Shown: positions 26,728 to 53,547, counted from the first letter of the stretch. The stretch is DNA of 64,000 nt from an uncultured delta proteobacterium (GCA_963767925.1 CAVYGB010000008.1:704001-768000), one strand, 5' to 3'. Notes: a model not told the origin generated them from the letters alone. Numbers and translations: made by a program.

Positions 26728-26728
26728 G

Positions 26729-27949
26729 TCAGAGCTCCGAGACCGCGACCGGAGCCACGCGATGCCGGATCAGCCCTGCCTCGAGGAGGCGGTAGAGCAT
26801 GCGCATGGCCCCCCAGGCCCCCAGCCCCGAAGCGTCGACGATCTGGCGGACGGTGCGCCGGCCGTCAGTCAGGTCGAGCACCGCCCCTTCCTCGGAGGTG
26901 AGCCGACCCCGCCCCAGGTTCGCCACCATGCCCTCGTTGCGCACGAAGACCCGCTCGAGGTCCCCGAGCTCGCGCTGGATGAGCCGCCACTGCTCGACCC
27001 GCCGGAACCCTTCGAGCAGCAGCGCCGGCAGGGCCAGGGCCAGCGCCGCCTCGGCCGCCGCCAGCGTCGGCTCAGCCGTGCGCTCGAAGACGAAGCGCCC
27101 CTCTTGCCAGCGCAGGGCCTCGTAGAGCAGCGCCGCCGTCTGCAGCGACAGCACACGGGCCAGGTCCTCGCCGGTGATGAGGCCGCAATCCACGAGGAAC
27201 CGCCCCAGCAAGGGCAGCGAGCCGTCGCTGCCCCGGCGGGCCCGGCGGGCCTCCAGCCCCCCCAGCAAGGTGGGCGTGTCGAGGGCGCCCGCCCGCACGA
27301 GGAAACGGCCGAGCAGGAACTCCTCGGTGACGCCCTCGGCGGTGGCGAGGTCGAGGCGACCGTGGCGCAGGTGCAGCCGCAGCCGGGTCTCGCCGTTGAC
27401 GACCGAGACGACCCCGCTCTGCGCCTCCCGCTCGAGGAGCATGAGGACATCGGCCAGCGCCACCGCCGCCAGATCCCCGGCGAGGGCCACCCCCAGCGGA
27501 CGGGTCGGGCGCGGCTCCGGCTCGGGCGGTCGGGGCGGGCCCGGCCAGGGCGGCGGCTCGTCGCCTTCGCCCGGCGCCGCCCGGTTCAGCGCCTGCGAGA
27601 CGACGGCGAGCAGGGCCTGGGGGGTGAAGGGCTTGGCGATCGCGTCGACGACGTTGCTGCGAGGGCCCCGCAGGTTGCCCTCCGCCGACCCGGGCTCACC
27701 CAGCAGCACCACGGGAACCGAGGCGCAGGCCCGATCGGCCCGCAGCGCCGCGCAAACCGCCTCCCCCTCCATGTCGGGCAAGATCGCGTCCACCAGGATG
27801 AGCGCCGGCCGCACCGCACGCGCCACCTCGAGGCCTTCCTCGGCCCTTCCGGCCACGGCCACCTGATACTCGGCCTCGCCAAGGACGACTTGCACCAGCC
27901 GCAACACGGTCGGGCTGTCGTCGATGACGAGAATGCGCTCCCGCGACAT
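26729..27949 (-). CDS. Response regulator with DUF4388 (PatA/PilG-like) domain
   Basis: ILVIDDSPTV, D..LPD, KPF; LAGDL..VALADVL.LL...QSG; W.EG.F.F. Confidence 0.85.
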   Translation of the reverse strand: MSRERILVIDDSPTVLRLVQVVLGEAEYQVAVAGRAEEGLEVARAVRPALILVDAILPDMEGEAVCAALRADRACASVPVVLLGEPGSAEGNLRGPRSNVVDAIAKPFTPQALLAVVSQALNRAAPGEGDEPPPWPGPPRPPEPEPRPTRPLGVALAGDLAAVALADVLMLLEREAQSGVVSVVNGETRLRLHLRHGRLDLATAEGVTEEFLLGRFLVRAGALDTPTLLGGLEARRARRGSDGSLPLLGRFLVDCGLITGEDLARVLSLQTAALLYEALRWQEGRFVFERTAEPTLAAAEAALALALPALLLEGFRRVEQWRLIQRELGDLERVFVRNEGMVANLGRGRLTSEEGAVLDLTDGRRTVRQIVDASGLGAWGAMRMLYRLLEAGLIRHRVAPVAVSEL

Positions 27950-38012: not shown

Positions 38013-38783
38013 CTAGTAAAACACGAGGGTGAGACCGAGGCCGTTCTGGAAGTAGCTGCCACCTGGAAAGCGAGCTATGCCGCTCGACCATTCCACGCCG
38101 AGGGCCACGCTCTCGCCCTGGACGATCTCGACTCCCAGGCCAGCGACGAAGGCCTGTCCGGCCGAGCCGTCGTAGGTCTCGTAGCTGGTCTCCTCGTTGA
38201 CGGTAGCCAGGCCGATGCCGGCGCGGGCGTAGAACCGGCGCGCGAAGAAGAACTGCGCGCCGAGTAGATAGTTGGTCTGGGTCAGCTCGGGCGCGCCGAT
38301 GGTGGCGCCGTCGAGGCCCAGAAAGACGATCCAGTTCCGGCTCACCCCGAAGCCCACCCGGGCCAGGTAGGTCAGACCGCCCTCGTGCTCGCGCGGCCGC
38401 GGCAGCGACAGCCAGCCCGACCCCAGGCCGAGCGCGATGGTGAAAGATCGATAGATTCCGCGCGCGGCGGCCGGCGCCGCTGGGTAGTAGTAGGGCAGGG
38501 GTGGCGCCTGCGGATAGCCCGGCGGCGGTCCGTAGGGATACGGGTAAGGGTAGGGCGCCGGGTAAGGCACCGGCGTGGGGCCCGGTGAAGGGACGGGCGC
38601 GGGGGCCGGCGGAGGCGCGTCGGGCGTGGGAGGAGGCGGAGACGGTGGCGGCAGCGGCGCGCTGGGGTCTGGCTCCGGCGGTGGCGACGCCGGCGCCTGC
38701 GCGCCTTGTTGCGCGAAGGCAGCGGCGTGAATCAGCGCCACGCCGACGGCGGCGCGGAGACCGGTCTTGAGAACGCCCAACAT
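38013..38783 (-). CDS. Pro-rich outer-membrane beta-barrel protein
   Basis: Signal peptide, Pro/Tyr-rich linker, beta strands ending in FY. Confidence 0.7.
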   Translation of the reverse strand: MLGVLKTGLRAAVGVALIHAAAFAQQGAQAPASPPPEPDPSAPLPPPSPPPPTPDAPPPAPAPVPSPGPTPVPYPAPYPYPYPYGPPPGYPQAPPLPYYYPAAPAAARGIYRSFTIALGLGSGWLSLPRPREHEGGLTYLARVGFGVSRNWIVFLGLDGATIGAPELTQTNYLLGAQFFFARRFYARAGIGLATVNEETSYETYDGSAGQAFVAGLGVEIVQGESVALGVEWSSGIARFPGGSYFQNGLGLTLVFY

Positions 38784-38801
38784 CTAGAAACACCGAAGGG
38801 T

Positions 38802-38818
38802 ATCAAAACCTGTGCCGA
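38802..38818 (-). promoter_or_regulatory. Candidate sigma54 promoter (variant -12 GA)
   Basis: TCGGCACAGGTTTTGAT = GG-N10-GA, about 20 nt upstream of ATG 38783. Confidence 0.4.
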
Positions 38819-38951
38819 TCATGTAGGCAGATGTCGTCCGGAGACGCCGATCACCGTCCGAAGGCCCGGCCGGGTCCGCCGGGGGGACGCCTGTGACGCT
38901 GGTCGTTCCCCTTCGCGTCGGCGGAGGTCTCCGCAATATACTCTCCGGTCC

Positions 38952-40721
38952 ATGGCGGAATCTCGCTCGGCAGCCGTCCTGGCTGCCCTCCGCGCGGCGG
39001 CTCAACCGGAGCAAGAACGTCACCTGGTGGGTCTGCGCGAGCCCCGGGAGCAGGTCCGGATCGCCGACGCCCTGGCCCCCGAGGGCCGGGTCGTCCGGGA
39101 GGGCTCGACCCGAATCGCCCTCGAGCGGCTGGCCGGCGAGCCGTTCGAGCTGTCGGTGCTCGATCTGGAGGAACGGGAAGGCTTCAATCCCCTGGCCGCG
39201 GGCAAGGAGCTGCGCCCCTTCACCGATTTGCTGTTCCTGATCGAGCCCGACCCGGTCCGCTGCGGGGAGGCCTTCGCCGCCGAGGTCGCCGCGGTCATCC
39301 CGCGGCCGCTGCCCGAGGACGATGCCCTCCTGCGCGCGCACCTGCGCTGGCTGGCCTCCTGCCGCCGCTCTCGGACCCGGGGCGCCCTGCTGCGCAATGC
39401 GCTCTCCCGGCACGGACAGGAGCTGACCGACCGCGAGCCGGCGCTGGCCCAGGCGCTCGCCGAGGTGATCGCAGCCGCCGCCCACGAGCCGACCGTCCTC
39501 GTCATGGGGGACGCCGAGCTGGTCCGGGCCTCGGGCGGGCAGGCGGTCGAATCGGCCCCCGACGTGGCGGTCGTCGCCCTGGCGGCGGTCGACGTCACGG
39601 TCAACCGGCTGCGCGAGGCCCGGAACCGGGCCCCGGGCGCCGCCCTGGTGGTCGTCGACGCCAGCCCCACGCCCGAACGGCTGGCCGGCGCCCTTTACGG
39701 GGGCGCGCGCGCCTACCTCACCAGGGGGCAGATCGCGAGCCTGGGGCGGGTGGTGGCCAGCATCGCCGTGCGACGCAGCGCCGAGCTGTGCGGGCGGCGG
39801 CTCGTCGAGACCCTGGCCCGCTTCGGCGCCCTCGAGCGGGCCGCCGATCGGGAGCCGCCGACCCAGGCCGCCCGTGACCTGCACGCCCGCCTCATCGCCG
39901 ACGCGACCTCCAGCTCGCCGCCTTTCGTCCCCTCCGGTCACGAGGTCCTGCTTGTCGACGACGAGGCCGTCGTGCTCACCGTCTTGCGCGAGGCCTTGCG
40001 TCGCGGTGGCTACCGGGTCACCACGGCCGCCTCGGGAGAGGAGGCGATCGAGCTGATGCAGCGGCGCACCTTCGACCTGGTCCTCACCGACAAGAACCTG
40101 CCCGGCACCTCGGGCCTCGAGGTGGCCCGCATCGCTCGGGCCTTGCCGTCTCCCCCCGCCGTCATCCTGATGACCGGGTATTCCTCCTACGAGTCGGCGG
40201 TCGAGGCGCTCGACATGGGCGCCTACGACTATATCGAGAAGCCGATCGGCGATCTCGACAACCTGCGCTTCCGCGTGCGGCGGGCGCTGTCCCGCCACGA
40301 CGAGCAGCAGTCGCGCGCGCCGGCCGCCACCGACGAGAGCGCGGGCCGGGTCCTGCTGGTGGAGGTGGAGGGGGGCCGGCGGCAGCTCATGGCCGAGTTC
40401 CTGGGCCGTTCTTACCGGGTGGTGGCCGTCTCGGACGGGATCGAAGCGCAGCGCCGGCTCCAGGAAGAACGGTTCGACGTCGTGGTCGCCGATCGCAACC
40501 TGCCGGGCCTCTCGGGCCTGCGCGTGATCGAGCAGGCCCAGCGCCTGCTTCCGCACTGCGCGTGCGTTCTATACACCGCCTATCCGGCCTATGAGACGGT
40601 CAAGGAGGCCTTCGAGCTCGGGGTGGACGCTTTTTGCGTGCGTCCGAGCGAGGACCTCAAGAGCCTGGGCCAAAAAGTTGCCGAAGCTTTGCGCAGCCGC
40701 GGCGGGATCCTCCTCGGTTGA
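38952..40721 (+). CDS. Multi-receiver-domain response regulator without output domain
   Basis: VLLVDDE..TDKNLP..MTG..KP; second REC with ADRNLP; two degenerate N-terminal REC-like segments. Confidence 0.82.
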   Translation: MAESRSAAVLAALRAAAQPEQERHLVGLREPREQVRIADALAPEGRVVREGSTRIALERLAGEPFELSVLDLEEREGFNPLAAGKELRPFTDLLFLIEPDPVRCGEAFAAEVAAVIPRPLPEDDALLRAHLRWLASCRRSRTRGALLRNALSRHGQELTDREPALAQALAEVIAAAAHEPTVLVMGDAELVRASGGQAVESAPDVAVVALAAVDVTVNRLREARNRAPGAALVVVDASPTPERLAGALYGGARAYLTRGQIASLGRVVASIAVRRSAELCGRRLVETLARFGALERAADREPPTQAARDLHARLIADATSSSPPFVPSGHEVLLVDDEAVVLTVLREALRRGGYRVTTAASGEEAIELMQRRTFDLVLTDKNLPGTSGLEVARIARALPSPPAVILMTGYSSYESAVEALDMGAYDYIEKPIGDLDNLRFRVRRALSRHDEQQSRAPAATDESAGRVLLVEVEGGRRQLMAEFLGRSYRVVAVSDGIEAQRRLQEERFDVVVADRNLPGLSGLRVIEQAQRLLPHCACVLYTAYPAYETVKEAFELGVDAFCVRPSEDLKSLGQKVAEALRSRGGILLG

Positions 40722-40761: not shown

Positions 40762-40789
40762 TAAGGTTCTGTTGCTGGTCGGTCGATGA
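40762..40789 (+). promoter_or_regulatory. Candidate sigma28 (FliA) promoter
   Basis: TAAG-N16-GTCGATGA; shares CGGTCGATGA and spacing with the flgM promoter. Confidence 0.6.
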
Positions 40790-40805: not shown

Positions 40806-43000
40806 ATGAAGATCGCATTCACGCACAACCTCCGGCTCACCGACAGCGAGGATGAGGCGGAGTTCGACACCGCCGAGACCGTCGACGCCATCGCCAACGG
40901 CCTGCGCGCGGGCGGTCACGAGGTCGAGAAGATCGAGGTGACGGGCCCCGCCTCGCACCTGGCCGCCCGCATCGAGTCCTTCGCGCCCCGATCTCATCTT
41001 CAACACCGCCGAGGGCCGGCGCGGGCGCACCCGCGAGGCCTTTTACCCCGCCCTGTTCGAGGAGCTGGGCTTCCCCTACACCGGCTCGGACGCCTACGTG
41101 ATGACGGTGACCCTCGACAAGTGGCTCACCAAGCTGGTCCTCGCCGCCCAGGGCATCGACACCCCCCGCGGCCGCCTCGTCGTGCCGGACGACCTGCGCC
41201 GCATGCGCGAGGCCGGCATCGGTGGGCCTCGCCTTCCCCGTCATCGTCAAGCCGAACTACGAGGGCTCGTCCAAGGGGATCGGGGACGATGCGGTGGCCC
41301 GCGACGCCCGCAGCCCTGGCCGAGATGCTGCCCCGCGCCCTGCGCAAGTTCCCCAGCGGCGTGATCGTCGAGGAGTTCATCGCCGGCACCGACGTGACCG
41401 TGCCCTTCGTCGAGGGCCTGGGCGACGACGGCGTGCTGCTGCCGGTCGACTACCTCGTCGATCCGAGCGCCCGCAGCCGCTTCAACCTCTACGACTACCG
41501 GCTGAAGTCCAGCGAATCGAGCCGGGTGCAGGTGCGCTGCCCGCCCGATCTGCCCCGCGACGTCACCGCCCGGGTGCGGGCCACCTCGCGCCTGGCGGTG
41601 CGGGCCCTCGACGTGCGCGACCTCGGGCGCGTCGACTTCCGCATCGGCGAGGACGGGCGCATCTACCTGCTCGAGGTCAACGCTCTGCCCTCGCTCGAGC
41701 GCGGGGCCAGCCTGTTCGCCGCCGCCGTCCGCGAGGGGCTGGACTACGAGGCCACCCTGGGCGCGATCGTGGCCAGCGCAGCCCGCCGGCAGGGTCTGAT
41801 GGCGCCGCCCGGCGCAAACGCCGGCGCAAGCCGGCCGACCCGCTGCGCATCGGCTTCACCTTCAACGTGAAGCGGGTCGACTCCAAGGGGGGCAACGACG
41901 CCGAGGCGGAGTACGACGCGCCCGAGACCATCGACTCGATCCGCGACGCGCTCGAGAGCTACGGCCACGTCGTGATCCCGCTCGAGGCGACCGCCGAGCT
42001 GCCCCGGCAGCTGATGGAGTCCCCGGTCGACCTGGTCTTCAACATCGCCGAGGGGGTCTCGGGGCGGAACCGCGAGGCGGTCGTGCCCGGCGCTGTGCGA
42101 GCTGATGGGCATCCCCTACACCGGCTCGGACGCCGCCACGCTGTCGATCGCCCTCGACAAGGCGCTGTCCAAGCGGGTCCTGCGCCAGCACGGCATCCTC
42201 ACGCCCGAGTTCCAGGTCATGGAGACCGGGCGCGAGCGGCTGTCGCCCAAGCTGAAGTTTCCCGCTCATCGTCAAGCCCAACCAGGAGGGCTCGTCCAAG
42301 GGGGTCAGCGCCCAGGTCTCGGTGGTCGACAACGAAGATGTCCTGCGCCAGGTGGTGCGCGATCTGCATCGAGACGCTACCGGCAGCCGGCCCTCGTCGA
42401 GGACTACATCGCGGGGCGCGAGTTCACGGTCGGGCTGCTCGGCGACAAGCGCCCGCGGGTCCTGCCGCCGATGGAGATCGTCTTCCGCGACAAGAACAAC
42501 TCGCGCCCGGTCTACGACTACCAGATCAAGCAGGAGTGGGAAAAACACGTCTACTACGAGTGCCCGGCCCAGCTGACCCCGGCCGAGCTCAAGAGCATCG
42601 AGCGGGTCTGCGCGCGAGACCTTCGCCGCCCTCGACTGCCGCGACGTCGCCCGGGTCGACCTGCGCATGAACGCCAAGGGCGAGATCTACGTCCTCGAGG
42701 TCAACCCGCTGCCCGGGCTGACCCCCGGGTACTCCGATCTCTGCCTGATTGCGCAAGGCAGCCAACATCGACTACCGCTCGCTCATCGGCGAGATCCTGG
42801 CCGGCGGCCTCAAGCGGCTGCGCGAGAAGCGCCGGGCGGAGGCCGCCAAGTCCGGCCCCACCACCACCGCCGGGACCGCGGCGAGCGCCCCCTCGGCGGC
42901 GGCGGCCGGGGCAGAGGGGAGCAACGGCTCCAAGGACGAGGGTCGCGGGCTGGCCGACGAGGAGAAGACCCCCACCCCGCCCGACGTCATGTTGCCCTGA
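40806..43000 (+). CDS. Tandem double D-Ala-D-Ala-ligase-like ATP-grasp protein (several frameshifts)
   Basis: Two copies of FN.AEG, PYTGSD, KPN.EGSSKG, RVD.R, LEVN.LP; no in-frame start before the second domain. Confidence 0.8.
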
Positions 43001-43082
43001 GGGCCCTGGCGAGCGCGCTCGCCGGGGGTCCAGCGCAACCAGAAACTGGGCGTGGCCTCCCGGTTGGGGGTAAAACTGCTAC

Positions 43083-44197
43083 GTGCGACGACGGTTACGC
43101 GACATGGGCTTCACGCTCGGGCGCCTGCCGCCCGGCCCATGGAACGCGATCACCGACGTGAAGGGCGTCCGGGTCGGCCACACCACGCTCATCGAGGGTG
43201 AAGGGCCGCTCATGGTGGGCAAGGGGCCCGTGCGCACCGGGGTGACCGCGGTGCTGGCCGGCTCGTCGACATCTTCGAGCGGCGGGCGATGGCCGGCTCC
43301 TTCGTGCTCAACGGGGCCGGCGAGGTCTCGGGGCTGACCCAGGTGCAGGAGTGGGGCCTGCTCGAGACGCCCATCCTCCTCACCAACACCATGTCGGTGG
43401 GCAAGGTGTCCGACGCCGCGGTCAAGTGGATGACCCGGCACTTCCCGGGCATCGGCAGCGAATACGACGTCGTCATCCCGCTGGTGGGTGAATGCGACGA
43501 CTCCTGGCTCAACGACGCGGTCGGACGGCACGTCCGCTCCGAACACGTGTACCGGGCCATCGAGCAGGCCACCTCGGGCCCGGTGGCCGAGGGCTCGGTG
43601 GGCGCCGGGACGGGGATGGTCACCTGCGACTTCAAGGGGGGCATCGGCACCAGCTCGCGCCGGGTGCCGGCCGAGATTGGTTTTTACACCCTGGGGGTGC
43701 TGGTCCAGACCAACTTCGGGGTCATGCGCTCGCTGGTGATCGACGGCGCCCCGGTCGGCGAGATCCTCGAGCCCACCTTCGGCTCGAGCGAGCGGCGGCT
43801 GCACAACGCCGGCTCGATCATCTGCGTGGTGGCGACCGACGCCCCCCTGTTGCCCTCGCAGATCACCCGGCTCTGCAAGCGGGCGGCGCTGGGCATCGGC
43901 CGGGTCGGATCCTTCGCCGCCCACGGCTCCGGCGAGATCATCGTCGGATTTTCGACCGCCAACCAGGTGCCGCGCCACACCTCGGGCATGACCACCCGTC
44001 TCGAGGTGCTGCTGGACCCCGCCTGCGACGGCCTCTACGAGGCCGTCGTCGAGTGCACCGAGGAGGCCATCGTCAACGCGCTGTGCGTCTCCGACAGCAT
44101 GCGGGGGCAGTCCGACCACTTCGCGCCCGCCTTGCCCCTGGCGGATCTCGAGCAGATCTTGCGCCGGTACCGCTCGGCGCGCACCCGTCCCGCCTAG
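43083..44197 (+). CDS. dmpA: P1/S58 family peptidase, DmpA-like (frameshift near 43260)
   Basis: NAITDV.GVRVGH, RTGVTA, LNG.GE, GECDDS.LND, GAGTGM, FKGGIGTSSR, G|SII autocleavage site, ATDAP. Confidence 0.9.
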
Positions 44198-44209
44198 GCG
44201 GAGCAACCG

Positions 44210-45267
44210 ATGCACATCTGTGTTCTGGTCGGGGACGTCAAGGCGCTCAAGCCGCGTTTCGGCAGCGTCCACCTGGCCTGGGCGGCCCACCGCCGCGGCC
44301 ACGACGTGCACTTCGTCTCGGTCGACGACCTCTCTTACCTGAACGACAACAGCATCCTGGGCACCACAACCCGGGCCCGGGCCGGCGACTACGCCCGCGC
44401 CGGCCGACTACCTGGAGGCCCTCCGCTCCGTCGGAGGCGGTCCGGGACGAGGAGGCGCTGTCGCGGCTTCGACGTGGTCTTCCTGCGCTACAACCCCCTC
44501 ACCGAGAGCGCGGCCCACGCCGGATCGCCGGTCATCGATCTCTGCTGGCGGCTGCGCCTGGGCGGCACCCTCGTGATCAACGATCCGGAGGGCGTCCGGC
44601 GCGCCGGCAGCGGCATGTACCTGGCCGACCTGCCGGCCGAGATCCGGGTGCGGACGCTGGTCTCGCGCTCGCGGGCCCGCCTGCGCGAGTTCCTGCGCGA
44701 GCTGGACAGCCCGGCCGTGCTGCGCGCCCTCTCCCCCTCGGGCGGGGAGAAGGTCTTTTACGTTCGCCGCCGCCAGAAGGCCAACGTCAACCAGATGATC
44801 AGCGCCCTCACGAAGGAGGGTTACGCGGTGGCGCAGGAGTACCCGCCCGAGGCCGAACACGGCGAGAAGCGGATCCTGCTGCTGGGCGGCGAGCCGATCC
44901 GGATCGGGACGGACGTGGCCATCTACCGCCGGGTCCCCTTGCTGAAGGGGGGCCTCACCGACACCCTGGTCGAGACCCCGGGCGGGCGGGGCCGGCGAAA
45001 GCGCTGCGAGTTCGGGCCGGTCGAAGCGCGCCTGTGCGAGATCTTGCGCCCCAAGCTGCTGGCCGATGGCCTCTACTTCGTCTCGTCGACCTGGTCGGCG
45101 ACAAAATACTTGGACTCAACGTGTTCACCCCGAGTGGACTGCGGTCGCTCTCGGAGATATACGGCGTCGAGGTGGGCGAGATCGTCGTTCGTGACCTGGA
45201 GCGGCGGGTCCGGTTACGCGCCGCCTATCGGACCACGTTCGATCCGGAGGCCGCTGACATCGTGTGA
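44210..45267 (+). CDS. Glutathione synthetase (GshB)-like ATP-grasp protein, degenerate (frameshifts)
   Basis: FDVVFLR.NP, VINDP.G, AQEY.P, GEKRILL..GEP, DLVGDKIL.LNVF.P. Confidence 0.75.
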
Positions 45268-45321
45268 GGTGGGTCCCTGCTGGAAAAGCCAACGACATCC
45301 GGCTACGCTGATGCCGCAGTC

Positions 45322-46586
45322 TTGCGAGAATCGGCGCAGCACGGCTTCTCGGCGGAGACCGAGGATGACACGACGGTCGCCGCCCAGGCTGGCGCGCCGG
45401 TGGGGCCCCTTGCCCCCACGCCGCTGACCGTCTCGAACGCCGACACCGGCGAGATCATCTCGATCGCGCCCGGACCCATCCTGACGGTCTCGGCCGAGGA
45501 GATCGCGCGCTTCTTCGTCCGGGTGAGGCGGGACCAGGACGCCGAGCGCTGGGACGTCCGTCTCGACGGCGCCCTCCGGGAGATCCTCGAGCGGGCCAAC
45601 GACTTCGTCCCCTCCGAGTCGGGCGGCATCCTGCTCGACGATCCCCGGGCCAAGCTGGCCGGCGTGCGGACGCCCCGCCTCACCTTCATCGCGGTGTACG
45701 GGCCAAACTCGGCCCAGCTGCTCGGCAAGCGGGTGCCCACCGAGCGGGGGTTCGTCGGGGAGATCTACCGGGGCGGCCGGGCGGTGCACACCGATCGGCT
45801 GACGGTCGACGATCCCCTGCTGGCCACCTTGCCCCCGCGATCCTCGGGCCCCCCGGTCCAGTCGATCATCGGCGTGCCCGTCATCGTCGGCGAGTCGATC
45901 TGCGGGGTGCTGCTTGCTGACCAACCGGCGGGCCGGCGGCGCCTACAGCACCCGGGAGAGCGAGCTGCTGCAGATCTTCGCCGCGTACATGTCCTCGTCG
46001 ATCCAGAACGCGCTCGACGCCATCCGGGCCCGGGCCCTCGCCCGGCTCGATCACCTCACCGGCCTGTTCAACAGCCGCTACTTTCACGTGCGGCTGCAGG
46101 ACGAGATCGCCCGGGCGGATCGCGAGGGGACGGAGCTGTCGATGCTGTTCGTCGACCTCGACAACTTCAAGCTGGTCAACGACCGCTTCGGCCACATGGC
46201 GGGGAGCTGGACCCTGCGCGAGGTGGCCCGGCTGCTCACCGAAAACGCGCCCCCCGCCACCGTGCTGGCCCGCTACGGCGGCGACGAGTTCGCCGCCATC
46301 CTGCCCAACACCGGCCTGGCCCGGGCGGTCCAGATCGGCCGAGCACCTCCGGCGCGTCATCGCCGACGCCACCCTCTTCGACATGGAGTCCGAGCCGGGG
46401 CAGCCGGCGCAGATGTTGCCCGGGGTGCGGGCCTCGGTCGGGGTGGCCTCCTACCGCGACCACCTGGCCCCGGGGGGCAACCAGCGCCGTCGGGGCAACG
46501 TGTTCCTGCGGCTGAGCGACTCGGCCATGTACCGCGCCAAGGCCAACGGCCGGAACCGGGTCGAGGTCGCCGAAGCCGAAGAATGA
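45322..46586 (+). CDS. GAF-GGDEF diguanylate cyclase (frameshifts; start uncertain)
   Basis: GAF segment; DHLTGLFN, DLDNFKLVNDRFGH, RYGGDEF, SVGVA, AMYRAK..GRN. Confidence 0.88.
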
Positions 46587-47176
46587 CCGCCGCCGTCCGG
46601 GCGGTCCTGCTGGTCGCCGCCGCGGGAGCGGCCTGCAACCGGGTGGGGGGAGAGGAGGGGCTCGAGGCCCGGACTCCCCTCGTCGAGCTGCGCGACGAGA
46701 CGGGCCAGCGGCGCCTGGCGGTCTGGAAGGTCGACGACGGGTTTCGCTGGCTCGACCGCCAGGAGGGCTCCGGCCGCATCCAGGTGGGGCCCGCCGAGCG
46801 GCTGCTGGCCCACGATCCCGAGCGCGGCCCGGTCGAGGTCTCGCCGCCCGGACCGGGTGGCCGGCAGCTCCGGCGGGCCGACGGCACGGCGCTCCGCCTC
46901 AGCCGGGAGGGCACCTTGCTGCGGCTGGGGGACGGGGCCGGCATTCCGCTGGCGCGCGCCCGGGTGGAGGCGGAGGAGGCCCTGGTTCACGACGCGGGTG
47001 GCGTCGTGGTCCTGCGGGCGCGCCGCGCGGGCGGACGCATCGTGGTGACGGATCGGGAGGGGCGCGCAGCGGCTTTCGTCGTGGGGCAGGCGTCGCCTGA
47101 ATACGCGGCGCTGGCCGCCCTGCCCGGGATGCGCGCGGTGGAGCGGGCTCTGTTGCTCGTCGTGCGGGGACCGTGA
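46583..47176 (+). CDS. Hypothetical lipoprotein
   Basis: GAAC lipobox; ATGA overlap with the cyclase stop. Confidence 0.6.
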   Translation: MTAAVRAVLLVAAAGAACNRVGGEEGLEARTPLVELRDETGQRRLAVWKVDDGFRWLDRQEGSGRIQVGPAERLLAHDPERGPVEVSPPGPGGRQLRRADGTALRLSREGTLLRLGDGAGIPLARARVEAEEALVHDAGGVVVLRARRAGGRIVVTDREGRAAAFVVGQASPEYAALAALPGMRAVERALLLVVRGP

Positions 47177-47190
47177 GGGAGAAGCGGCGG

Positions 47191-47388
47191 TTACTCTTCA
47201 GCCAGCGCCCGCGCCAGGATCCGGACCGCGAGCTTGTACGGCTCGACGCGATACCGACCAGCAGCCACCAGCCTCCGCAACTCCTCCACCCGTGCCGCCC
47301 GCGCGATCTGCTCGCCGCTGCGCGAAGCCGCCACGGAGGCGCGCTTGCCGGAGAGCTTTCGCGAGGTGTGCCGACCTGTGAACGTCAT
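47191..47388 (-). CDS. flgM: FlgM-like anti-sigma28 factor (short)
   Basis: R.ARVEELR..V..G.Y.V....LA..IL matches the FlgM C-terminal pattern; directly downstream of fliA. Confidence 0.78.
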   Translation of the reverse strand: MTFTGRHTSRKLSGKRASVAASRSGEQIARAARVEELRRLVAAGRYRVEPYKLAVRILARALAEE

Positions 47389-47395
47389 ACCCACT

Positions 47396-47423
47396 TCATC
47401 GACCGGAATCCGGAGACTCTTTA
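47396..47423 (-). promoter_or_regulatory. sigma28 promoter of flgM (leaderless)
   Basis: TAAA-N16-GTCGATGA, ending 7 nt before ATG 47388. Confidence 0.7.
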
Positions 47424-47502
47424 GAGCCGAACCCCGAAAAAAGCGCGCGAAGTAGGAAAGTCCAGGGATTTCGGTGGTTTTACGCTCAGGCCAGACCCCC
47501 GG

Positions 47503-48272
47503 TCAGGCCGCGACGGTCTCTTCCAGCTCGCTCAGCGACTCACGAAGTCGGCGGGTGGCCTCTCCGTGGATCTGGCAGACCCGAGACTCGGTGACGCCCA
47601 GAACCTCGCCGATCTCCTTGAGATTCAGGTTCTCGCAGTAATAAAGGGAGAGGACCTGCTGCATCTTCTCGGGCAGATCGTCGATGCCGTCCACCAGCCG
47701 GGCCAGGGTCTCCCGGTGGGCCGTCACCTCGAAGGGGTCGGGGAGCTCTCGTCGCTGGTGCGCTCCAGGAAGTCGGGCCCCGCGTCGTCGATGCCGACCA
47801 CCGACGACCCCGACAGCTTCTGCTGGCGGGCGTACAGCTCGTCGACCGCCACCCCGAGGGTCTCGGCCAGCTCCTCCTGGTCGGGCGAACGACCGAGCTG
47901 CGACTCCAGCCGACGGGTCGCCTCGCGCAGCTCGTTGGACAGCCGCCGCATGTCGCGCGACAGGGTGTCGCGGGCGCGCAGGTCGTCCAGCATGGCGCCG
48001 CGGATCCGGTATTCGGCGAAGGCCTCGAACCGATCGACCCGCTTGGGGTCGTAGCGCTCGGCCGCTTCCATCAGGCCGATCACGCCCGAGGAGATCAGGT
48101 CGTCGATCTCGACGTGGGCGGGCAGTCGGCGCGCCAGCCGGCGGGCGACCTTCTCGATGTATGGAAAGAACTTAGCGGCGTACTCTCGCCGCCGATCCGC
48201 CAGAGCCTTGCGAGACAGCTTCGGTGCCCGTTTGGGTCGCTTCCGCTTGGGCGCAACAGCTTTGGTCGGCAT
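47503..48272 (-). CDS. fliA: FliA/WhiG family sigma factor (frameshift near 47745)
   Basis: LPAHVEIDDL.S.G..GL, RIRGAMLD.LR..D, LSLYY.E.LNLKEIG.VLGVTESRVCQIH. Confidence 0.93.
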
Positions 48273-48285
48273 GCTGGCGCAGACG

Positions 48286-48302
48286 AGCAGAGTTCGTGCC
48301 AG
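48286..48302 (-). promoter_or_regulatory. sigma54 -24/-12 promoter of fliA
   Basis: CTGGCACGAACTCTGCT = TGGCACG-N4-CTGC, exact GG-N10-GC spacing. Confidence 0.8.
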
Positions 48303-48363
48303 CGAAGGCTCTGCAGAAAGCTCGCGATCCCATTGGTGTAGGACGTGTGGGACGGCCCAAGAG

Positions 48364-48413
48364 CGTCAGAGGGATGACGATCTTGGGCTCTTGACGGCGT
48401 CAGCCCGGTGACG
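48364..48413. promoter_or_regulatory. Two FleQ-box-like enhancer palindromes
   Basis: CGTCA-GAGGGA-TGACG (48364-48379) and CGTCA-GCCCGG-TGACG (48398-48413). Confidence 0.7.
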
Positions 48414-48469
48414 ATGTTTTTCTGTCTTCGCTCCTGCTCTGACACCCTCACTCCCGGCTCGTCGGAACG

Positions 48470-49816
48470 TCAGGCGACGTTGCGACGTCGTAGCTTCTCC
48501 ACCAATGTCGTACGGTTCATGCCGAGCAGCTCGGCGGCGCGATTCTTGTTGCCTCCCGTGCGGGCCAGTGCCTGCTTGATGAATCGATCTTCGAGCTGCG
48601 ACAGCAACATTCGCAAGTCAACCCCCGAAGGAGGAAGATCCAGCCGGCCGGCGTTGACGTCGACGACGTCGTCTCGCAGGTTGGGCGGCAGATCGTCCAG
48701 CGTGACGGTGCGATTGCCCGCCAGCAGCACGAGCCGCTCGATGGCGTTCTCGAGCTGGCGCACGTTGCCCGGCCAGTCGTGGGTCTGCAGCCGGGCCAGC
48801 ACCTCGGAGGTGAAGCCGGGCACCAGGCGGGCGTCGCGGGCGTTGAACTCCTTGCGGAAGTGCTCGGCCAGCAGGGTGATGTCCTCCCGGCGCTCGCGCA
48901 GGGGGGGCAGCTCGATGGGGATGACGTCGAGCCGGTAGTAGAGGTCCTCCCGGAAGTACCCGTCCTTGACCAGTTGCTCGAGGTTGCGGTGGGTGGCGGC
49001 GATGACCCGCACGTCGAAGGCCACGCTCTCGCCACCGCCCACCGGCTGCACCGTCCGCTCCTGCAGGGCGCGCAGCAGCTTGGCCTGCAGGCCCTTGGGC
49101 ATGTCCCCGATCTCGTCGAGGAAGAGCGAGCCGTGGTCGGCTGACTGGAACTTCCCCATGCGGGTGCGCTCGGCCCCCGTGAAGGCGCCCCGCACGTGCC
49201 CGAACAGCTCGGACTCCGCCAGGTTCTCGGGGATGGCGGCCATGTTCATCGCCACGAAGGGCGCCGCCCGCCGCGAGCTGGAGGTGTGGATGAGCCGGGC
49301 CACCACCTCCTTGCCGGTCCCGGTCTCGCCCCGGATGAGGACGTTGGCGTCGGTGTCGGCGACCTGGTCGATGCGCTCGAGCACGAGCCGCATGGCCGGA
49401 TGGTCCCCGATGAGGGCGGCCCGCTGCGCCCGATGGGTGCGGCTGTTCCCGCTGCGCTCGTCGAGGACCCGCAGCAGGCTCTCTTCCAGGGCGGTGTGGT
49501 GGAAGGGCTTGGCCAGGAAGTCGGCCGCCCCCAGGCGGAGGGCGGTGATGGCGTCGCCCACCGTTCCGTTGCCCGTCAGGACGATGACGGGGATCGGGGG
49601 CCGCCGGCGGCGCGCCGCTTCGAGGACCTGGAAGCCGTTCCGCTTGGGTAGCTGCAGGTCGGTCACGCACAGATCGACGTCGTCCTGCTCGAGGCGGTGG
49701 ATGGCCAGCTCGCCATCGGCCGCATACACGACCTCGCCGCTGCTTACGCGCAGACTACGTTGGAGCGCGGCGAGAACCGCCGGATCCTCGTCGACGAGGA
49801 GGACGCGCGTCCGCAT
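48470..49816 (-). CDS. sigma54-dependent activator REC-AAA+-HTH, FleQ/FlrA-like
   Basis: GETGTGKE, ESELFGH..GAFTGA, FLDEIG, WPGNVR, C-terminal LP..GVDL and NRTTLVEKLR. Confidence 0.9.
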   Translation of the reverse strand: MRTRVLLVDEDPAVLAALQRSLRVSSGEVVYAADGELAIHRLEQDDVDLCVTDLQLPKRNGFQVLEAARRRRPPIPVIVLTGNGTVGDAITALRLGAADFLAKPFHHTALEESLLRVLDERSGNSRTHRAQRAALIGDHPAMRLVLERIDQVADTDANVLIRGETGTGKEVVARLIHTSSSRRAAPFVAMNMAAIPENLAESELFGHVRGAFTGAERTRMGKFQSADHGSLFLDEIGDMPKGLQAKLLRALQERTVQPVGGGESVAFDVRVIAATHRNLEQLVKDGYFREDLYYRLDVIPIELPPLRERREDITLLAEHFRKEFNARDARLVPGFTSEVLARLQTHDWPGNVRQLENAIERLVLLAGNRTVTLDDLPPNLRDDVVDVNAGRLDLPPSGVDLRMLLSQLEDRFIKQALARTGGNKNRAAELLGMNRTTLVEKLRRRNVA

Positions 49817-49828
49817 GTGCGAAGAGAT

Positions 49829-49855
49829 TCATCGGCTGAAAGAGGGGTGCCTTGA
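49829..49855 (-). promoter_or_regulatory. sigma28 promoter of the sigma54 activator
   Basis: TCAA-N15-GCCGATGA, 12 nt before ATG 49816. Confidence 0.7.
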
Positions 49856-49918
49856 CGACGCCACCGTCGGTCCGGCGGCTGTTGCGTCCGGCCAAGCGGC
49901 CCGCGCCCTGCGGCAGCT

Positions 49919-51556
49919 CTACTTCTCTTCGCTCCAGGGTCCGCGCATACCGAGCTTGGTCAAGATCAGGCCGAACTCCTTCTTGTGAGGCGCCCGGGCG
50001 TAGGCCTCCTCGGGTTCGACCAGCTGGTTCTTGACGAGCTCGACGAGGGTATCGTTCAGCGTTTGCATGCCGAGCGACTTTCCGGTCTGCATGAGCGAAG
50101 GGATCTGGAAGGTCTTCCCCTCGCGGATCAGGTTGGCCACCGCCGGCGTCACCACGAGGATCTCGAGCGCCGCCACCCGCCCGCCGCCCTTCTTGCGCAG
50201 CAGGGTCTGGGCGACCACGCCCTTGAGGGACTCGGAGAGCATCACCCGCACCTGGGGCTGGCGGTCGGTGGGAAACTGATCGATGAGCCGATCGACCGTG
50301 GAGGGCGCGGTGTTGGTGTGGAGCGTTCCGAACACGAGGTGGCCCGTCTCGGCCGTCTCGATGGCGATGGCCACCGTCTCGAGGTCGCGCATCTCGCCCA
50401 CCAGCACGATGTCGGGGTCCTCGCGCAGGGCGGCCCGCAAGGCGGCCTTGAAGCCCTTCGTGTGGGTCCCCACCTCGCGCTGGTTGATGAGGCACTTCTT
50501 GTCCTTGTGGACGAACTCGACCGGGTCCTCGATGGTGATGATGTGATCGTCCCGGTTGGCGTTGATCCAGTCCACCATCGCGGCGAGGGTCGTCGACTTG
50601 CCGCTGCCGGTCGGCCCCGTCACCACCACCAGCCCCTTGTCGAACTGGCAGAAGTCGATGCAGGCCTTCGGCAGACCCAGCGTCTCGACGCTGAGGATCT
50701 TCGAGGGGATCTGGCGGAAGACGGCGCCCACGCCGGCGATGTCCCGGAAGACGTTGCAGCGCATGCGGGCCCGGCCGGGCAGGGCGTAGGCGAAGTCGGT
50801 GTCGCTGGTCTCGCGGAACTCGATCTGGTTACGCTCGGGCATCATCGGCTCGAACATCCTCTCGAGCTCGGTCGAGCTGAGCGGGCCCCGTCCGGGCACG
50901 GTGGCGATCGACCCGTCGACCCGCACCATGGGGACGTTGCCCGACTTGAGGTGCAGGTCGGAGGCCTTCATGTCGAGCATCTGATGGAAGAGCTGGTCCA
51001 TCGTCACTGGCTCGAGGTTGATCGAGGAGGTCGGAGGGGACCGCCCGAAGAGCGCGGCAGAGGAGGGGCCCGAGACCAGCACGGGGGCCGGTGTGTGCAG
51101 CGAGGGCAGGCTGGCCTGGGGGGCGCTGGTCGCCGGTGGCTCTGGCCCGAGGGCGGCCGAGACCGAGGAGATGGACACGCCCTGCCGCCCGTCCGCGTGC
51201 CCCGGACCCGGCGAGGGTCCCGGCCCGGCGTTGGTGTGGCCGCTGGGCATGGGCGCCGGCGTCCCCGACAGCAGGATCCGAACCTGCAGCCCCATCTGGC
51301 TGTCGTCGACCTGCAGGATGGCCGCGCCCAGCGGGGACTGATACGGATAGCTCCGCTTGCCCGAGACCCCCGGCGCGTAGGCCGGACCGAGTGCCTCGCT
51401 CAGCAAGGCAGAGATCTGCTCCTCGGAGACCGGCTTGCTCGTCGCAGGTCGGGGCACTCCCGACATGATGAGCTCGATGGGAGCGCCGGGTCGAAGCACG
51501 AGCGCTTCCGCTCTGTGCTTGACCAGGCCTTCGAGGTACTTGTCGACGACCGCCAC
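49919..51556 (-). CDS. pilT: PilT/PilU family type IV pilus retraction ATPase with N-terminal extension
   Basis: GPTGSGKSTT, TIEDPVE, ALREDPD..LVGEMRD, GHLVFGTLHT, AVANLIRE. Confidence 0.92.
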   Translation of the reverse strand: MAVVDKYLEGLVKHRAEALVLRPGAPIELIMSGVPRPATSKPVSEEQISALLSEALGPAYAPGVSGKRSYPYQSPLGAAILQVDDSQMGLQVRILLSGTPAPMPSGHTNAGPGPSPGPGHADGRQGVSISSVSAALGPEPPATSAPQASLPSLHTPAPVLVSGPSSAALFGRSPPTSSINLEPVTMDQLFHQMLDMKASDLHLKSGNVPMVRVDGSIATVPGRGPLSSTELERMFEPMMPERNQIEFRETSDTDFAYALPGRARMRCNVFRDIAGVGAVFRQIPSKILSVETLGLPKACIDFCQFDKGLVVVTGPTGSGKSTTLAAMVDWINANRDDHIITIEDPVEFVHKDKKCLINQREVGTHTKGFKAALRAALREDPDIVLVGEMRDLETVAIAIETAETGHLVFGTLHTNTAPSTVDRLIDQFPTDRQPQVRVMLSESLKGVVAQTLLRKKGGGRVAALEILVVTPAVANLIREGKTFQIPSLMQTGKSLGMQTLNDTLVELVKNQLVEPEEAYARAPHKKEFGLILTKLGMRGPWSEEK

Positions 51557-51567
51557 GGCCACGACAA

Positions 51568-51595
51568 CACTCGTCTTTTGAAGCCCTGAACTTGA
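51568..51595 (-). promoter_or_regulatory. Candidate sigma28 promoter of pilT
   Basis: TCAA(GTT)-N16-GACGAGTG just upstream of GTG 51562/51556. Confidence 0.45.
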
Positions 51596-51604
51596 GCGCC
51601 TGCA

Positions 51605-51633
51605 TTGACACTGTCGTTGCTTTCCCCTAGGGT
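51605..51633 (+). promoter_or_regulatory. sigma70 promoter of the nuo operon
   Basis: TTGACA-N17-TAGGGT. Confidence 0.7.
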
Positions 51634-51651
51634 TCCCGCGGCTCGACGACC

Positions 51652-52198
51652 ATGGCACTCGAGTTTTCTGCCCAAGCTAAGCAACAGATCGAGCGAATGC
51701 GCATGCGCTACCCCACGAGGCAGGCGGCGCTCCTTGCCGGTGCTTCACATCGCACAGGACGAGTTTGGTCATCTCTCCGACGAGGCGATCGAGCTCGTCT
51801 CCAGCACGTTGGCGCTCCCCCCGGCTCACGTCTTCGGGGTCGTCACGTTTTACACGATGTTCCACCGCGAGCCGCGGGGGAGCAACGAGCTCATGGTCTG
51901 CACCAACGTTTCCTGCATGTTGCGAGGGGCCTACGACATCCTCGCGCACCTGCAGAAGCGGCTGGGTGTCGGACCCGGGGAGACGACCGCCGACGGCGCC
52001 TTCACCCTCATCGAAGAGGAGTGTCTGGCGGCCTGCGCGAACGCCCCGATGATGATCTGCGGACCGGAGTACTACCTCGATCTCACCCCGGAGAAGGTCG
52101 ACCGCATCCTCGACGACCTCAAGAAGCGGCACTCGGAGCGCAAGAAGGCGACCCCCGCTGATCGCGCGCCCCAGGCGACGCAAGCAGCCAAGCCGTAG
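51652..52198 (+). CDS. nuoE: NADH-quinone oxidoreductase subunit E (frameshift near 51735)
   Basis: RYP..QAALLPVLH.AQ, VTFYTMF, C...SC, ECLAAC..AP. Confidence 0.93.
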
Positions 52199-52208
52199 GA
52201 CGACTCAG

Positions 52209-53547
52209 ATGGGCTCGCAGGACGCCACAAACACCAAGATCGTCACCAAGAACTTCGGTGTGCCGAATTCGCACCGTCTGGCCACCTATCTGCAAAGAGG
52301 GGGCTGGGACGGGTTCCGCCGGGCACTCACCTTCACCCCGACCAGCCTCACCGACGAGGTGAAGAAGTCCAACCTGCGCGGCCGCGGCGGCGCCGGCTTC
52401 TCCACCGGGATGAAGTGGTCCTTCGTGCCCAAGGAGGCCAAGCGGGTCTACCTGGTGTGCAACGCCGACGAGTCGGAGCCCGGCACCTGCAAGGATCGGG
52501 AGCTGATGGCGCTCGATCCCCACCTGCTCATCGAGGGCATGGCCATCGCGTCGTACGCCCTGGGCTGCAAACACGCCTACATCTATATCCGGGGTGAGAT
52601 GATCCGCGAGGCGCAGCATCCTCCAGGCCGCCATCGACGAAGCCTACGAGGCGGGCTGGCTGGCCAAGGATCACCTGGCGGCCAATGGAGTCTTCCGTCT
52701 CGACCTGACCCTGCACCGGGGCGCGGGCGCCTACATCTGCGGTGAGGAGACCGGCCTGCTCAACTCGCTCGAGGGCAAGCGCGGCTGGCCCCGCCTCAAG
52801 CCTCCCTTCCCCGCGGTGCGCGGCCTCTTCCAGGAGGCCACCATCGTCAACAATGTCGAGACGTTGATGAACATCCCCGACATCATCCTCAAGGGGGGCG
52901 AATGGTTCGCCCGCCTGGGGGTGGGCAAGTCGGGCGGAACCCGGATCGTCTGCGTCTCGGGCCACGTCAAGCGGCCCGGCGTCTTCGAGCTGCCGATGGG
53001 CATGCCCTTCCGGGAGCTGATCTACGACGTCTGCGGCGGCATGAGCGGGTCGGCTCCCCTCAAGGGGCTGATTCCGGGCGGCAGCTCGATGCCCCCTCTG
53101 GACGCCAGCGAGATCGACGTCCCCATCGAGTTCGACGCCCTCATGACCGACCCCCGGATCAAGGACGTCGAGGTCCGCCCGGGCGTCCCCTTCGATCTGG
53201 GCGGCGGGCGGCGCCTCAAGACCATGGCCGGCTCGGGCGGCATCGTGGTGTTCGACGAGGCGACCGACGTGGTGGCGCTCTGCGCCCGCATCATGAAGTT
53301 CTACGCGCACGAGTCTTGCGGCCAGTGCACGCCCTGCCGGGAAGGCACCGGCTGGCTGGCCCGGGTCTGCCAGCGGCTCGTCGAAGGGGACGGACGTCCC
53401 GGTGACGTCGACCTGCTGGCCAACATCGCCGTTGGCATCGCCGGCAACACCATCTGCGCGCTCGGCGAGGCTGCGGCCTGGCCGATGCTCGGGTTCCTCA
53501 CCAAGTTTCGCTCCGACTTCGAAGCCCGCCTGAGGAAGGCGGCCTGA
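52209..53547 (+). CDS. nuoF: NADH-quinone oxidoreductase subunit F (frameshift near 52620)
   Basis: LRGRGGAGF.TG.KW, NADESEPGT.KD, GAYICGEET, ESCGQCTPCREG, TIC. Confidence 0.95.

Follow-up and report, generated by a model that had tools for sequence, protein, structure and literature searches.

What does a flagellar-type sigma factor, with an anti-sigma factor encoded beside it, do in a stretch of DNA that holds no flagellar genes? The question is raised by 64 kb from an uncultured delta proteobacterium (G000:C8:704001-768000; this whole stretch is called the window, and positions without a prefix count from its first letter), in which four minus-strand genes within 51.66-47.19 kb encode a PilT-family ATPase, an enhancer-binding protein (EBP) of NtrC type, a sigma factor (FliA2) and a FlgM-like protein (FlgM2). 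Sigma-28 and FlgM are the textbook case of gene expression tied to the assembly of a machine, and the Myxococcota are known for gliding, not swimming. A sequence-only reading of the window had seen in these genes the regulatory skeleton of the polar-flagellum hierarchy, repurposed as a switch over pilus retraction, peptide chemistry and cyclic di-GMP (c-di-GMP). Judged by sequence comparison, FliA2 and FlgM2 are a second sigma-28/anti-sigma pair, paralogous to the FliA1/FlgM1 pair of a flagellar cluster and independent of the flagellum, because they are kept in genomes where no flagellin or rod genes were found, the flagellar cluster has its own FliA1 and FlgM1, and the two sigma factors form separate clades.

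The features of the module are the following, UAS standing for upstream activating sequence.

48470-49816, minus strand: NtrC-type response-regulator EBP, 448 aa, with REC, AAA+ (GAFTGA) and HTH_8 domains
49829-49855, minus strand: sigma-28-type promoter TCAAG-N14-GCCGATGA before the EBP gene, 12 nt before its ATG (49816)
48399-48412, no strand assigned: UAS box 1, palindrome CGTCA-N6-TGACG, from a motif scan
48365-48378, no strand assigned: UAS box 2, GTCA-N6-TGAC, from a motif scan, 34 bp from box 1
48287-48301, minus strand: sigma-54 -24/-12 promoter TGGCACGAACTCTGC, 14 nt before the fliA2 ATG (48272)
47503-48272, minus strand: fliA2, sigma factor of the FliA/WhiG family by Pfam and NCBIfam profile matches, here in two frames
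47396-47423, minus strand: sigma-28-type promoter TAAAG-N16-TCGATGA before flgM2, whose ATG lies 9 nt after CGAT
47191-47388, minus strand: flgM2, FlgM-like anti-sigma factor of 65 aa, ATG at 47388 or alternatively GTG at 47394 (65-67 aa)

Architecture and conservation of the module

The host assembly measures 9.34 Mb in 13 contigs (71% G+C, completeness 83.8%). For comparison, 80 loci were collected by a pattern scan of GTDB species genomes (81 when the window is included). All 80 come from metagenome-assembled genomes labelled Myxococcota, Polyangia, Myxococcales or 'delta proteobacterium', and where counts are given for evaluable loci, only those with enough flanking sequence were considered. 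The carriers form an uncultured soil family of Polyangia (Myxococcota) with no cultured member; 18 genomes of this family (G001-G018, the window genome being G000) served as the family sample. The minus-strand order described in the sequence-only reading, from pilT through the activator, the boxes, the -24/-12 promoter, fliA and the sigma-28 promoter to flgM, is present in full, with motifs far above chance. Its core is conserved across the related Polyangia loci: 70 of 71 evaluable loci have the EBP gene as the immediate upstream neighbour of fliA2, and the intergenic elements are more conserved than the surrounding sequence. No sigma-70-like promoter was found in window positions 47100-51800, and a simple scan of the window found no intrinsic terminator between fliA2 and flgM2.

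The two boxes expected between the EBP gene and fliA2 were recovered beyond chance. The pattern GTCA-N6-TGAC has five matches in the window against 0.43 expected (0/100 shuffles reach five), and two of them lie 34 bp apart in this intergenic region. Box 1, with a variable N6, is kept in 81/81 loci and sits 100-123 nt upstream of the -24 element in 79 of them, the distance being shorter in the other 2; exactly 34 bp downstream, 78/81 loci carry G[TC]CA-N6-TGAC, 33 of them with strict GTCA. In the window the boxes are placed 77-111 bp upstream of the sigma-54-type promoter, and the predicted -24/-12 element, TGGCACGAACTCTGC, is the sole match to TGGCAC-N5-YTGC. Across the loci, TGGCAY-N5-nTGC precedes fliA2 at the standard spacing in 79/81 and at a shorter one in the remaining 2, with only 21 more matches on the two strands of the 2.5 Mb that the loci comprise. 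The fliA2 ATG mostly follows 13-15 nt beyond the -12 TGC, and the gene lies downstream of the conserved boxes and promoter in all 81 loci. With the GG/GC spacing, the UAS pair and an rpoN gene in the host genome (C8:278763-279240), the sequence has the attributes of a sigma-54-dependent promoter. The paired boxes occur once in the 9.34-Mb genome: among 25 CGTCA-N6-TGACG palindromes, only these two precede a sigma-54-type promoter within 170 nt. Because the combination of box pair and sigma-54 promoter is unique genome-wide, it would be simplest if the boxes were bound by the neighbouring EBP, with fliA2 as the only gene that it activates.

The EBP itself belongs to the NtrC class, with a receiver domain (Response_reg, 91.1 bits) carrying the phospho-acceptor D53, an AAA+ domain (Sigma54_activat, 238.8 bits; AAA_lid_14, 91.6 bits) with GAFTGA at residue 210, and a C-terminal Fis-type helix-turn-helix (HTH_8, 52.5 bits). 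It scores under every NCBIfam equivalog cut-off (NtrC, 425.8 vs 558.6 bits) and is thus an unnamed member of this class. The activator had been described as FleQ/FlrA-like, which the domain content contradicts: Pfam finds no FleQ domain at E<=0.01, the N-terminus is a standard receiver domain, and no flagellar gene lies beside the EBP gene in the window or in the 80 related loci, so that the attributes of a FleQ/FlrA master regulator are missing. Since the receiver with D53 is present and the FleQ domain absent, the protein is by its domains of the NtrC/FlrC class. In another family of the class, a 52%-identical EBP gene lies ~1.1 kb upstream of a gene for a 52%-identical FliA (L069, G026:C310:23140-37574); no flagellin was found in that genome, which is 91% complete. 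Given this pairing, the EBP-fliA linkage may be older than the family.

In the window, regions 2-3 of FliA2 are encoded in frame at 47724-48272 and region 4 in another frame at 47503-47727. The sequence-only reading had correctly placed a fliA gene here and had overlooked the 1-nt deletion that splits it. The two fragments score 143.5 and 80 bits, each alone under the cut-off of the FliA models. The family assignment was therefore read from the intact same-genus ortholog (99% identical), which covers regions 2, 3 and 4 of a FliA/WhiG sigma-28 factor with 233.7 bits for TIGR02479 (cut-off 189.6) and 235.6 for NF005413 (cut-off 201). The best PDB matches of FliA2 are FliA and WhiG chains (E 1e-44). 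Orthologs 79-99% identical occur in 18/18 sampled family genomes; in other families of the class the best matches reach at most 51% identity. Between FliA2 and its same-genus ortholog 92/825 nt differ at an amino-acid identity of 99%, and more than 130 alignment columns are invariant among 76 sequences; on these alignments FliA2 is unusually constrained.

The short flgM gene was likewise found as described. Its product matches PF04316 with 28.2-28.4 bits (cut-off 25), as do 77/77 orthologs at E<=0.01, which are 62-79 aa long and share the C-terminal motif RVExLRxLVAAGxYxV; at ~65 aa the protein is shorter than the 98-position FlgM model. The FlgM2 profile matches the FlgM chain of PDB 9wsf (9wsf_B, E 8.6e-4). 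A predicted FliA2-FlgM2 complex scored 0.73, the best of three controls 0.12, and so passed in silico a mark attained by 116/157 solved complexes and 2/215 mismatched pairs; the model runs agree in at least 72% of contacts, with a predicted local distance difference test (pLDDT) of at least 64 for the partner. In the model, residues 30-60 of FlgM2 lie on residues 186-243 of FliA2 (region 4). As FliA-FlgM complexes have already been solved (9wsf, 1rp3/1sc5), the pass shows likeness, not binding.

Both remaining elements of the module are promoters of sigma-28 type. The motif proposed in the sequence-only reading, T(A/C)A(A/G)-N15/16-GYCGATGA, occurs three times in the window, where 0.08 matches would be expected: upstream of flgM2, of the EBP gene and of an ATP-grasp operon. 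The first is borne out everywhere: CTYAAG-N16-(G)CCGATG precedes flgM2 in 78/78 evaluable loci, with 9-10 nt from CGAT to the ATG in 76 of the 78, and the window site is the top genome-wide match (27.3 bits) of a position weight matrix (PWM) built from flgM2 promoters. The second stands in the same place in 64/67 evaluable loci, where 0.0065 are expected for the core motif, and the EBP ATG follows CGAT by 11-15 nt in 62 of those 64; the PWM score is at least 10 in 43/67 loci and in 1% of background windows. The promoter-to-ATG spacings are so short that, by the known start positions of sigma-54 and sigma-28 transcription, they imply nearly leaderless fliA2 and flgM2 mRNAs. For the EBP, fliA2 and flgM2 genes of the window and the related loci L070-L149, predicted leaders are absent or a few nt long, with no Shine-Dalgarno sequence; the flagellin gene, by contrast, has a leader of ~100 nt with AAGGAG.

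FliA2, FlgM2 and the flagellum

None of the 44 open reading frames (ORFs) scanned in the window is a flagellar structural gene, and the claim that flagellar genes are absent holds for these 64 kb. It fails for the genome. A flagellar cluster at C8:500-575 kb, on the same contig and 130-200 kb from the module window (C8:704-768 kb), encodes flagellin, FlgL, four rod/hook-type proteins, FlhA, FliA1 and FlgM1. Only one rod/hook gene set was found, its four Flg_bb_rod matches all lying at C8:503-569 kb. A preprint has earlier drawn attention to flagellar genes in uncultured Myxococcota (bioRxiv 10.1101/2021.07.06.451402). Although a flagellar regulon thus exists, it does not carry most of the sigma-28-type sites, and the local motifs are conserved.

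The distribution of the two pairs separates them. Flagellin was found in 12/18 family genomes. Five others (G002, G006, G011, G016 and G018, 86-100% complete) gave no match to flagellin (0/5) or to the rod motif (0/5), and FliG had no match in G006, G011, G016 and G018 and a borderline one in G002. All five keep FliA2 at 79-85% identity. The flagellated genomes G000, G003 and G015 each encode FlgM twice, next to fliA2 and again in the flagellar region; in G006, G011 and G016 the only FlgM is the fliA2-linked copy.

FliA1 and FliA2 are only ~38% identical, and a maximum-likelihood tree of 49 sigma sequences places them apart. FlhA-linked FliA1 sequences (12 rows) group in one clade, with support 100/100, and FliA2 sequences in another, with 99/100; the FliA1 clade is represented in the 12 flagellin-positive family genomes and is not among the matches of G006, G011 and G016. 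FliA2 and the flagellar FliAs of other Polyangia families meet in a polytomy at 80/76 with long branches, and sigma factors of a third type group together in the manner of an outgroup. Further FliA2-like paralogs, 49-62% identical, occur in four genomes (G007:C490:9517-10017, G010:C7:126828-127298, G011:C148:35059-35556 and G015:C72:37768-38271) and join FliA2 in the tree (100/99). Of the repurposed flagellar skeleton, then, the conserved self-contained unit stands; it is a duplicate beside an ordinary FliA1/FlgM1, not the hierarchy itself.

Because genomes without flagellin, rod or FliG matches keep FlgM2, a release route for FlgM2 other than flagellar export is implied by this distribution. 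Besides the flagellar-type FlhA (~780-830 bits), the genomes G001-G018 contain other FHIPEP genes, one full-length (~735-760 bits) and one in two pieces (~500 + ~160 bits), some of them where no flagellar genes were found. To judge from these matches, such genes may encode the export gates of type III systems other than the flagellar one, a possible route for FlgM2.

Candidate targets and neighbouring genes

Scanning G000 with the PWM gave 29 sites at or above the threshold of 18 bits, with the flgM2 site at the top of the list; a Markov-1 simulation predicts ~6. Downstream genes with the same predicted, nearly leaderless arrangement encode a histidine kinase, an EBP without REC domain, a REC-GGDEF protein, a STAS protein, a REC-SpoIIE phosphatase, a PilZ protein and Ser/Thr kinases, and two REC-GGDEF paralogs and the PilZ ortholog in this genome carry similar motifs. 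In five other family genomes the strict sigma-28 pattern has 40 matches, its reversed control 13. Of the downstream proteins scanned, 5/15 contain GGDEF, EAL or PilZ, and orthologous REC-EAL genes (58% identical) are among the candidate targets in G011 and G015, accounting for 2/21 EAL genes in the five genomes; their orthologs in G000 show no clear motif at the projected starts. These candidates are a lead towards c-di-GMP signalling.

The other features considered are genes and motifs flanking the module.

49919-51562, minus strand: PilT/PilU-family ATPase, GTG at 51562 or 51556, start uncertain, ORF open to 51658
51570-51595, minus strand: relaxed sigma-28-type motif TCAAG-N16-ACGAG before pilT, failing the strict motif
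45322-47176, plus strand: convergent gene for a GAF-GGDEF diguanylate cyclase, its two Pfam matches (GAF_2, GGDEF) not sharing one frame
40762-40789, plus strand: sigma-28-like motif before the ATP-grasp operon, PWM score <9

The PilT-family ATPase belongs to PilT/PilU by its TIGR01420 match (462.9 bits, cut-off 319.1), which spans model positions 2-343 of 343 and residues 220-561 of a 579-aa ORF. Its N-terminal extension of ~190-220 aa has no Pfam match; the frame indicated by third-position G+C (GC3) is continuous, and orthologs align from residue 35. Over residues ~35-215 the extension opens with VDKYLEGLVKHRAEALVLRPGAPIELIMSG, which is similar to the first residues of the PilT core (MDQLFHQMLDMKASDLHLKSGNVPMVRVDG), and continues with a Pro/Ser/Ala-rich linker; it is conserved in the pilT-bearing relatives and, by its likeness to the core, may be a degenerate duplicated N-domain. 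The linkage of pilT to the module, true of the window, is confined to a sub-clade (upstream of the EBP gene in 8/65 evaluable loci). A sigma-28 promoter had also been claimed for pilT; what precedes the gene is a relaxed motif that fails both the strict pattern and the flgM2-derived PWM at threshold 9, although, of the 9 evaluable loci with pilT (the window among them), 7 have TCAAG-N16-NCGA(A/T/G) at this place, where 0.009 matches per 150 nt would be expected. Control of c-di-GMP and pili by the module thus keeps the GGDEF, EAL and PilZ candidates and this relaxed motif in its favour, and loses generality where pilT is concerned.

A convergent GAF-GGDEF gene lies downstream of the module in 36/69 evaluable loci. 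In G000 no sigma-28-type site scoring at least 9 was found upstream of it, and on present evidence the gene is a frequent neighbour, regulation by the module not being implied. The ATP-grasp operon (40806-45427, plus strand) consists of two tandem Ddl-like modules, fused into one 731-aa protein in G012, a peptidase S58 gene (DmpA-like, 325 bits) and a GshB-like ATP-grasp gene; these domains suggest a small gene cluster for ligating and trimming peptides. ATP-grasp or peptidase S58 genes are found near the module in 19/50 loci. The sigma-28-type motif reported before the operon is there in the window and has no counterpart in 19 related loci with a match of at least 60% identity to the N-terminus of the first gene. 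With no common motif upstream of the first Ddl-like gene in these loci, we rejected the operon as a conserved regulon member, and the proposed control of peptide chemistry finds no support beyond this genome. Just upstream of the operon, a 710-aa protein with two receiver domains (38589-40721, plus strand) has another GTCA-N6-TGAC, at 40161-40174, inside its coding region. A CheW-like gene (61 bits; 26224-26769, minus strand) lies ~20 kb from the module.

Proposed circuit, alternatives and parallels

Taken as a whole, the mechanism that we regard as likely is a three-gene cassette, EBP-FliA2-FlgM2, working as a flagellum-independent switch with positive and negative feedback. A signal would reach a kinase and lead to phosphorylation of the EBP at D53; the EBP would then bind the two CGTCA-N6-TGACG boxes 34 bp apart and activate sigma-54 RNA polymerase at TGGCACG-N4-CTGC. 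From the resulting, almost leaderless mRNA FliA2 would be made, which would read sigma-28-type promoters of the form CTYAAG-N16-CCGATG. Firing of the flgM2 promoter would supply FlgM2 to sequester region 4 of FliA2, a brake by negative feedback, and firing of the EBP promoter would yield more EBP, a positive feedback. As outputs, FliA2 would drive a small further set of genes: in one sub-clade pilT, and at other places in the genomes those for GGDEF, EAL or PilZ proteins. Where positive and negative loops interlock in this way, switch-like or pulsed behaviour can, in principle, result. Observed are the gene identities, the conservation and placement of the regulatory elements, the single occurrence of the UAS pair and the way in which the module is distributed with respect to flagellar genes; the binding partners, promoter use, feedback dynamics and regulon we infer from them. 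A bolder version is tentative and in our view rather doubtful: that an autonomous bistable or excitable switch sets c-di-GMP, and in some lineages pilus retraction, throughout the family, with FlgM2 released without hook-basal-body export.

Several observations weigh against the cassette as an independent switch. FlgM2, at 28 bits, does not reach the cut-off of the NCBIfam FlgM equivalog (TIGR03824, 40.75). In G016 taken alone the strict sigma-28 pattern has 4 matches against 3 in the control. If the fliA2 frameshift were real, the module would be dead in this strain. To judge by their motifs, the promoter specificities of FliA1 and FliA2 cannot be distinguished, and an attempt to tell their promoters apart was given up since the flagellin gene, with its long leader, has a similar upstream motif (TTAAC-N16-TCGAA). 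Inside the flagellar cluster, the EBP without REC domain at C8:499948 is a PWM candidate (23.3 bits), and an FlhG-like gene scores 15.6 bits, under the 18-bit threshold. By these motifs, FliA1 could read the module promoters in flagellated members, or FliA2 could feed flagellar genes. The receiver-less sigma-54 activator (403 aa; G000:C8:499948-501198) heads the flagellar cluster, the ATG following CGAT of its sigma-28-type site by 9 nt, and the FlhG-like ParA/MinD gene (C8:522473) and its counterpart in G003 both carry sigma-28-type sites; from these positions, cross-talk between the two sigma-28 systems may occur.

Cross-talk is the substance of the alternative that survives best, though we think it unlikely: the module would be a side branch of the flagellar programme, with FliA1 acting on the EBP and flgM2 promoters or FliA2 acting on the flagellar master EBP, flagellum status would be coupled to c-di-GMP and pilus control in flagellated members, and autonomy would come only after loss of the flagellum. 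The resemblance of the flagellin, receiver-less EBP (leaderless in geometry) and FlhG-like motifs (G000, G003) to those of the module speaks for it, as does the finding of the Actinomycetota study that WhiG1 and WhiG2 regulons are likewise inseparable (PMC12871210). Direct evidence of cross-recognition is lacking on its side, however, the two sigma factors share only ~38% identity, and module architecture and sequence are equally conserved with and without flagella.

That FliA2/FlgM2 is simply the ordinary flagellar checkpoint, encoded away from its cluster and with its promoters part of the flagellar hierarchy, is very improbable. The cluster does lie on the same contig and contain two sigma-28-type sites, sigma-54/EBP control of fliA is familiar from polar-flagellum hierarchies, and FliA2 (intact ortholog, 233.7 bits) outscores the cluster copy (190.1 bits) on TIGR02479. 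Yet the cluster owns FliA1 and FlgM1, three genomes without flagellin, rod or FliG matches keep FliA2 and only the fliA2-linked FlgM, the FliA1 clade follows flagellin and is not among the matches of those three, and no site of at least 11 bits precedes the flagellin gene.

The frameshift itself bears on the last alternative. Alignment with the same-genus ortholog places the 1-nt deletion at ~47742 in a TC(G)CCC run, with a stop after region 3, so that the window gene has no uninterrupted reading frame. Among the 80 orthologs, 76 have a full-length in-frame FliA2 ORF (>=225 aa); contig ends truncate 3 of the others, and the last one reads short. Of five neighbouring genes compared with their intact G012 orthologs, four also switch frame in the window, and rpoN and a second FHIPEP gene are likewise fragmented in the host assembly. 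For these reasons the frameshift probably arose as an error of assembly. Indels of 1 nt seem to be frequent in this assembly, in keeping with a completeness of 83.8% for only 13 contigs. Mid-gene frame changes were seen in the window at 40806-43073, 44210-45427, 45322-47176 and 52209-53547 and elsewhere at G000:C8:278763-279240 and G000:C2:1269278-1271284; the broken genes are the double Ddl-like ATP-grasp gene (at least five frames), the GshB-like, GAF-GGDEF and nuoF-like genes, rpoN and the second FHIPEP gene. Comparison of the locus with four soil/dust metagenomes found no same-strain read or contig across ~47742, exact short contigs covering only 47231-47433 and 49512-49781 of the module. 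A decaying relic with a genuine frameshift and no functional FliA2, its motifs reflecting function in relatives, would account for the deletion and the missing same-strain coverage but hardly for the intact orthologs (one of them from the same genus at 99% identity), the position of the deletion in the TC(G)CCC run and a breakage pattern typical of an unpolished assembly, and we give it very little credence.

For the independent switch, known systems offer partial likenesses. In Vibrio, Pseudomonas and Legionella a hierarchy of FleQ/FlrA, sigma-54, FliA and FlgM governs the polar flagellum. The circuit predicted for the module resembles it in having a sigma-54 activator above fliA, a FliA-driven flgM and an FlgM that antagonises FliA. 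It differs in that its activator has a phosphorylatable receiver and no FleQ domain and appears to have a single target, that its operons contain no flagellar gene, and that, by prediction, control runs from FliA2 through the EBP back to FliA2 in a closed loop and not down a linear cascade. Vibrio parahaemolyticus has two sigma-28 factors, the polar FliA and the lateral LafS, each serving a flagellar system. There too two FliA paralogs share one genome; here, however, only one rod/hook gene set was found, and FliA2 persists without any. In the literature searched, most subscription journals being outside its reach, no description of a sigma-28 module in Myxococcota was found.

The closest parallels are the WhiG1/WhiG2 pair and Legionella oakridgensis. 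According to Denis et al. (bioRxiv 2026, PMC12871210), Actinomycetota have sigma-28 paralogs WhiG1 and WhiG2, of which one tracks the flagellar cluster and the other is independent, with c-di-GMP enzymes, type IV pili and regulators as its predicted targets, and their regulons cannot be separated by motif alone. Two sigma-28 paralogs, one flagellum-linked and one independent, and candidate targets in c-di-GMP signalling are thus common to both cases. WhiG2 is held by RsiG together with c-di-GMP, whereas the anti-sigma factor of FliA2 is FlgM-like; and unlike WhiG2, fliA2 is preceded by a UAS pair and a dedicated sigma-54 promoter and has as its neighbour an EBP gene that itself carries a sigma-28-type promoter, all in another phylum, Myxococcota. 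In L. oakridgensis and clade III Legionella, FliA and FlgM are kept without flagella and with non-flagellar targets, as stated in a review (PMC5655016). The persistence of a sigma-28/FlgM pair without flagellar genes is shared; in the same source the Legionella pair appears as a single ancestral leftover, unlike FliA2/FlgM2, which is a second pair beside FliA1/FlgM1 and has its own EBP.

A second sigma-28/FlgM pair in Myxococcota is thus conserved more strongly than the flagellar pair and kept where no flagellar genes were found. It raises the question of how an FlgM-type anti-sigma factor is released without a flagellum; if release does occur without hook-basal-body export, this would be a new form of control for this class of proteins. 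The circuit is compact, with three genes and four regulatory elements, and could be rebuilt in a heterologous host. Alongside the independent case of WhiG1 and WhiG2 in Actinomycetota, which it parallels, FliA2/FlgM2 suggests by analogy that recruitment of sigma-28 to c-di-GMP and surface behaviour may be a recurrent evolutionary route.

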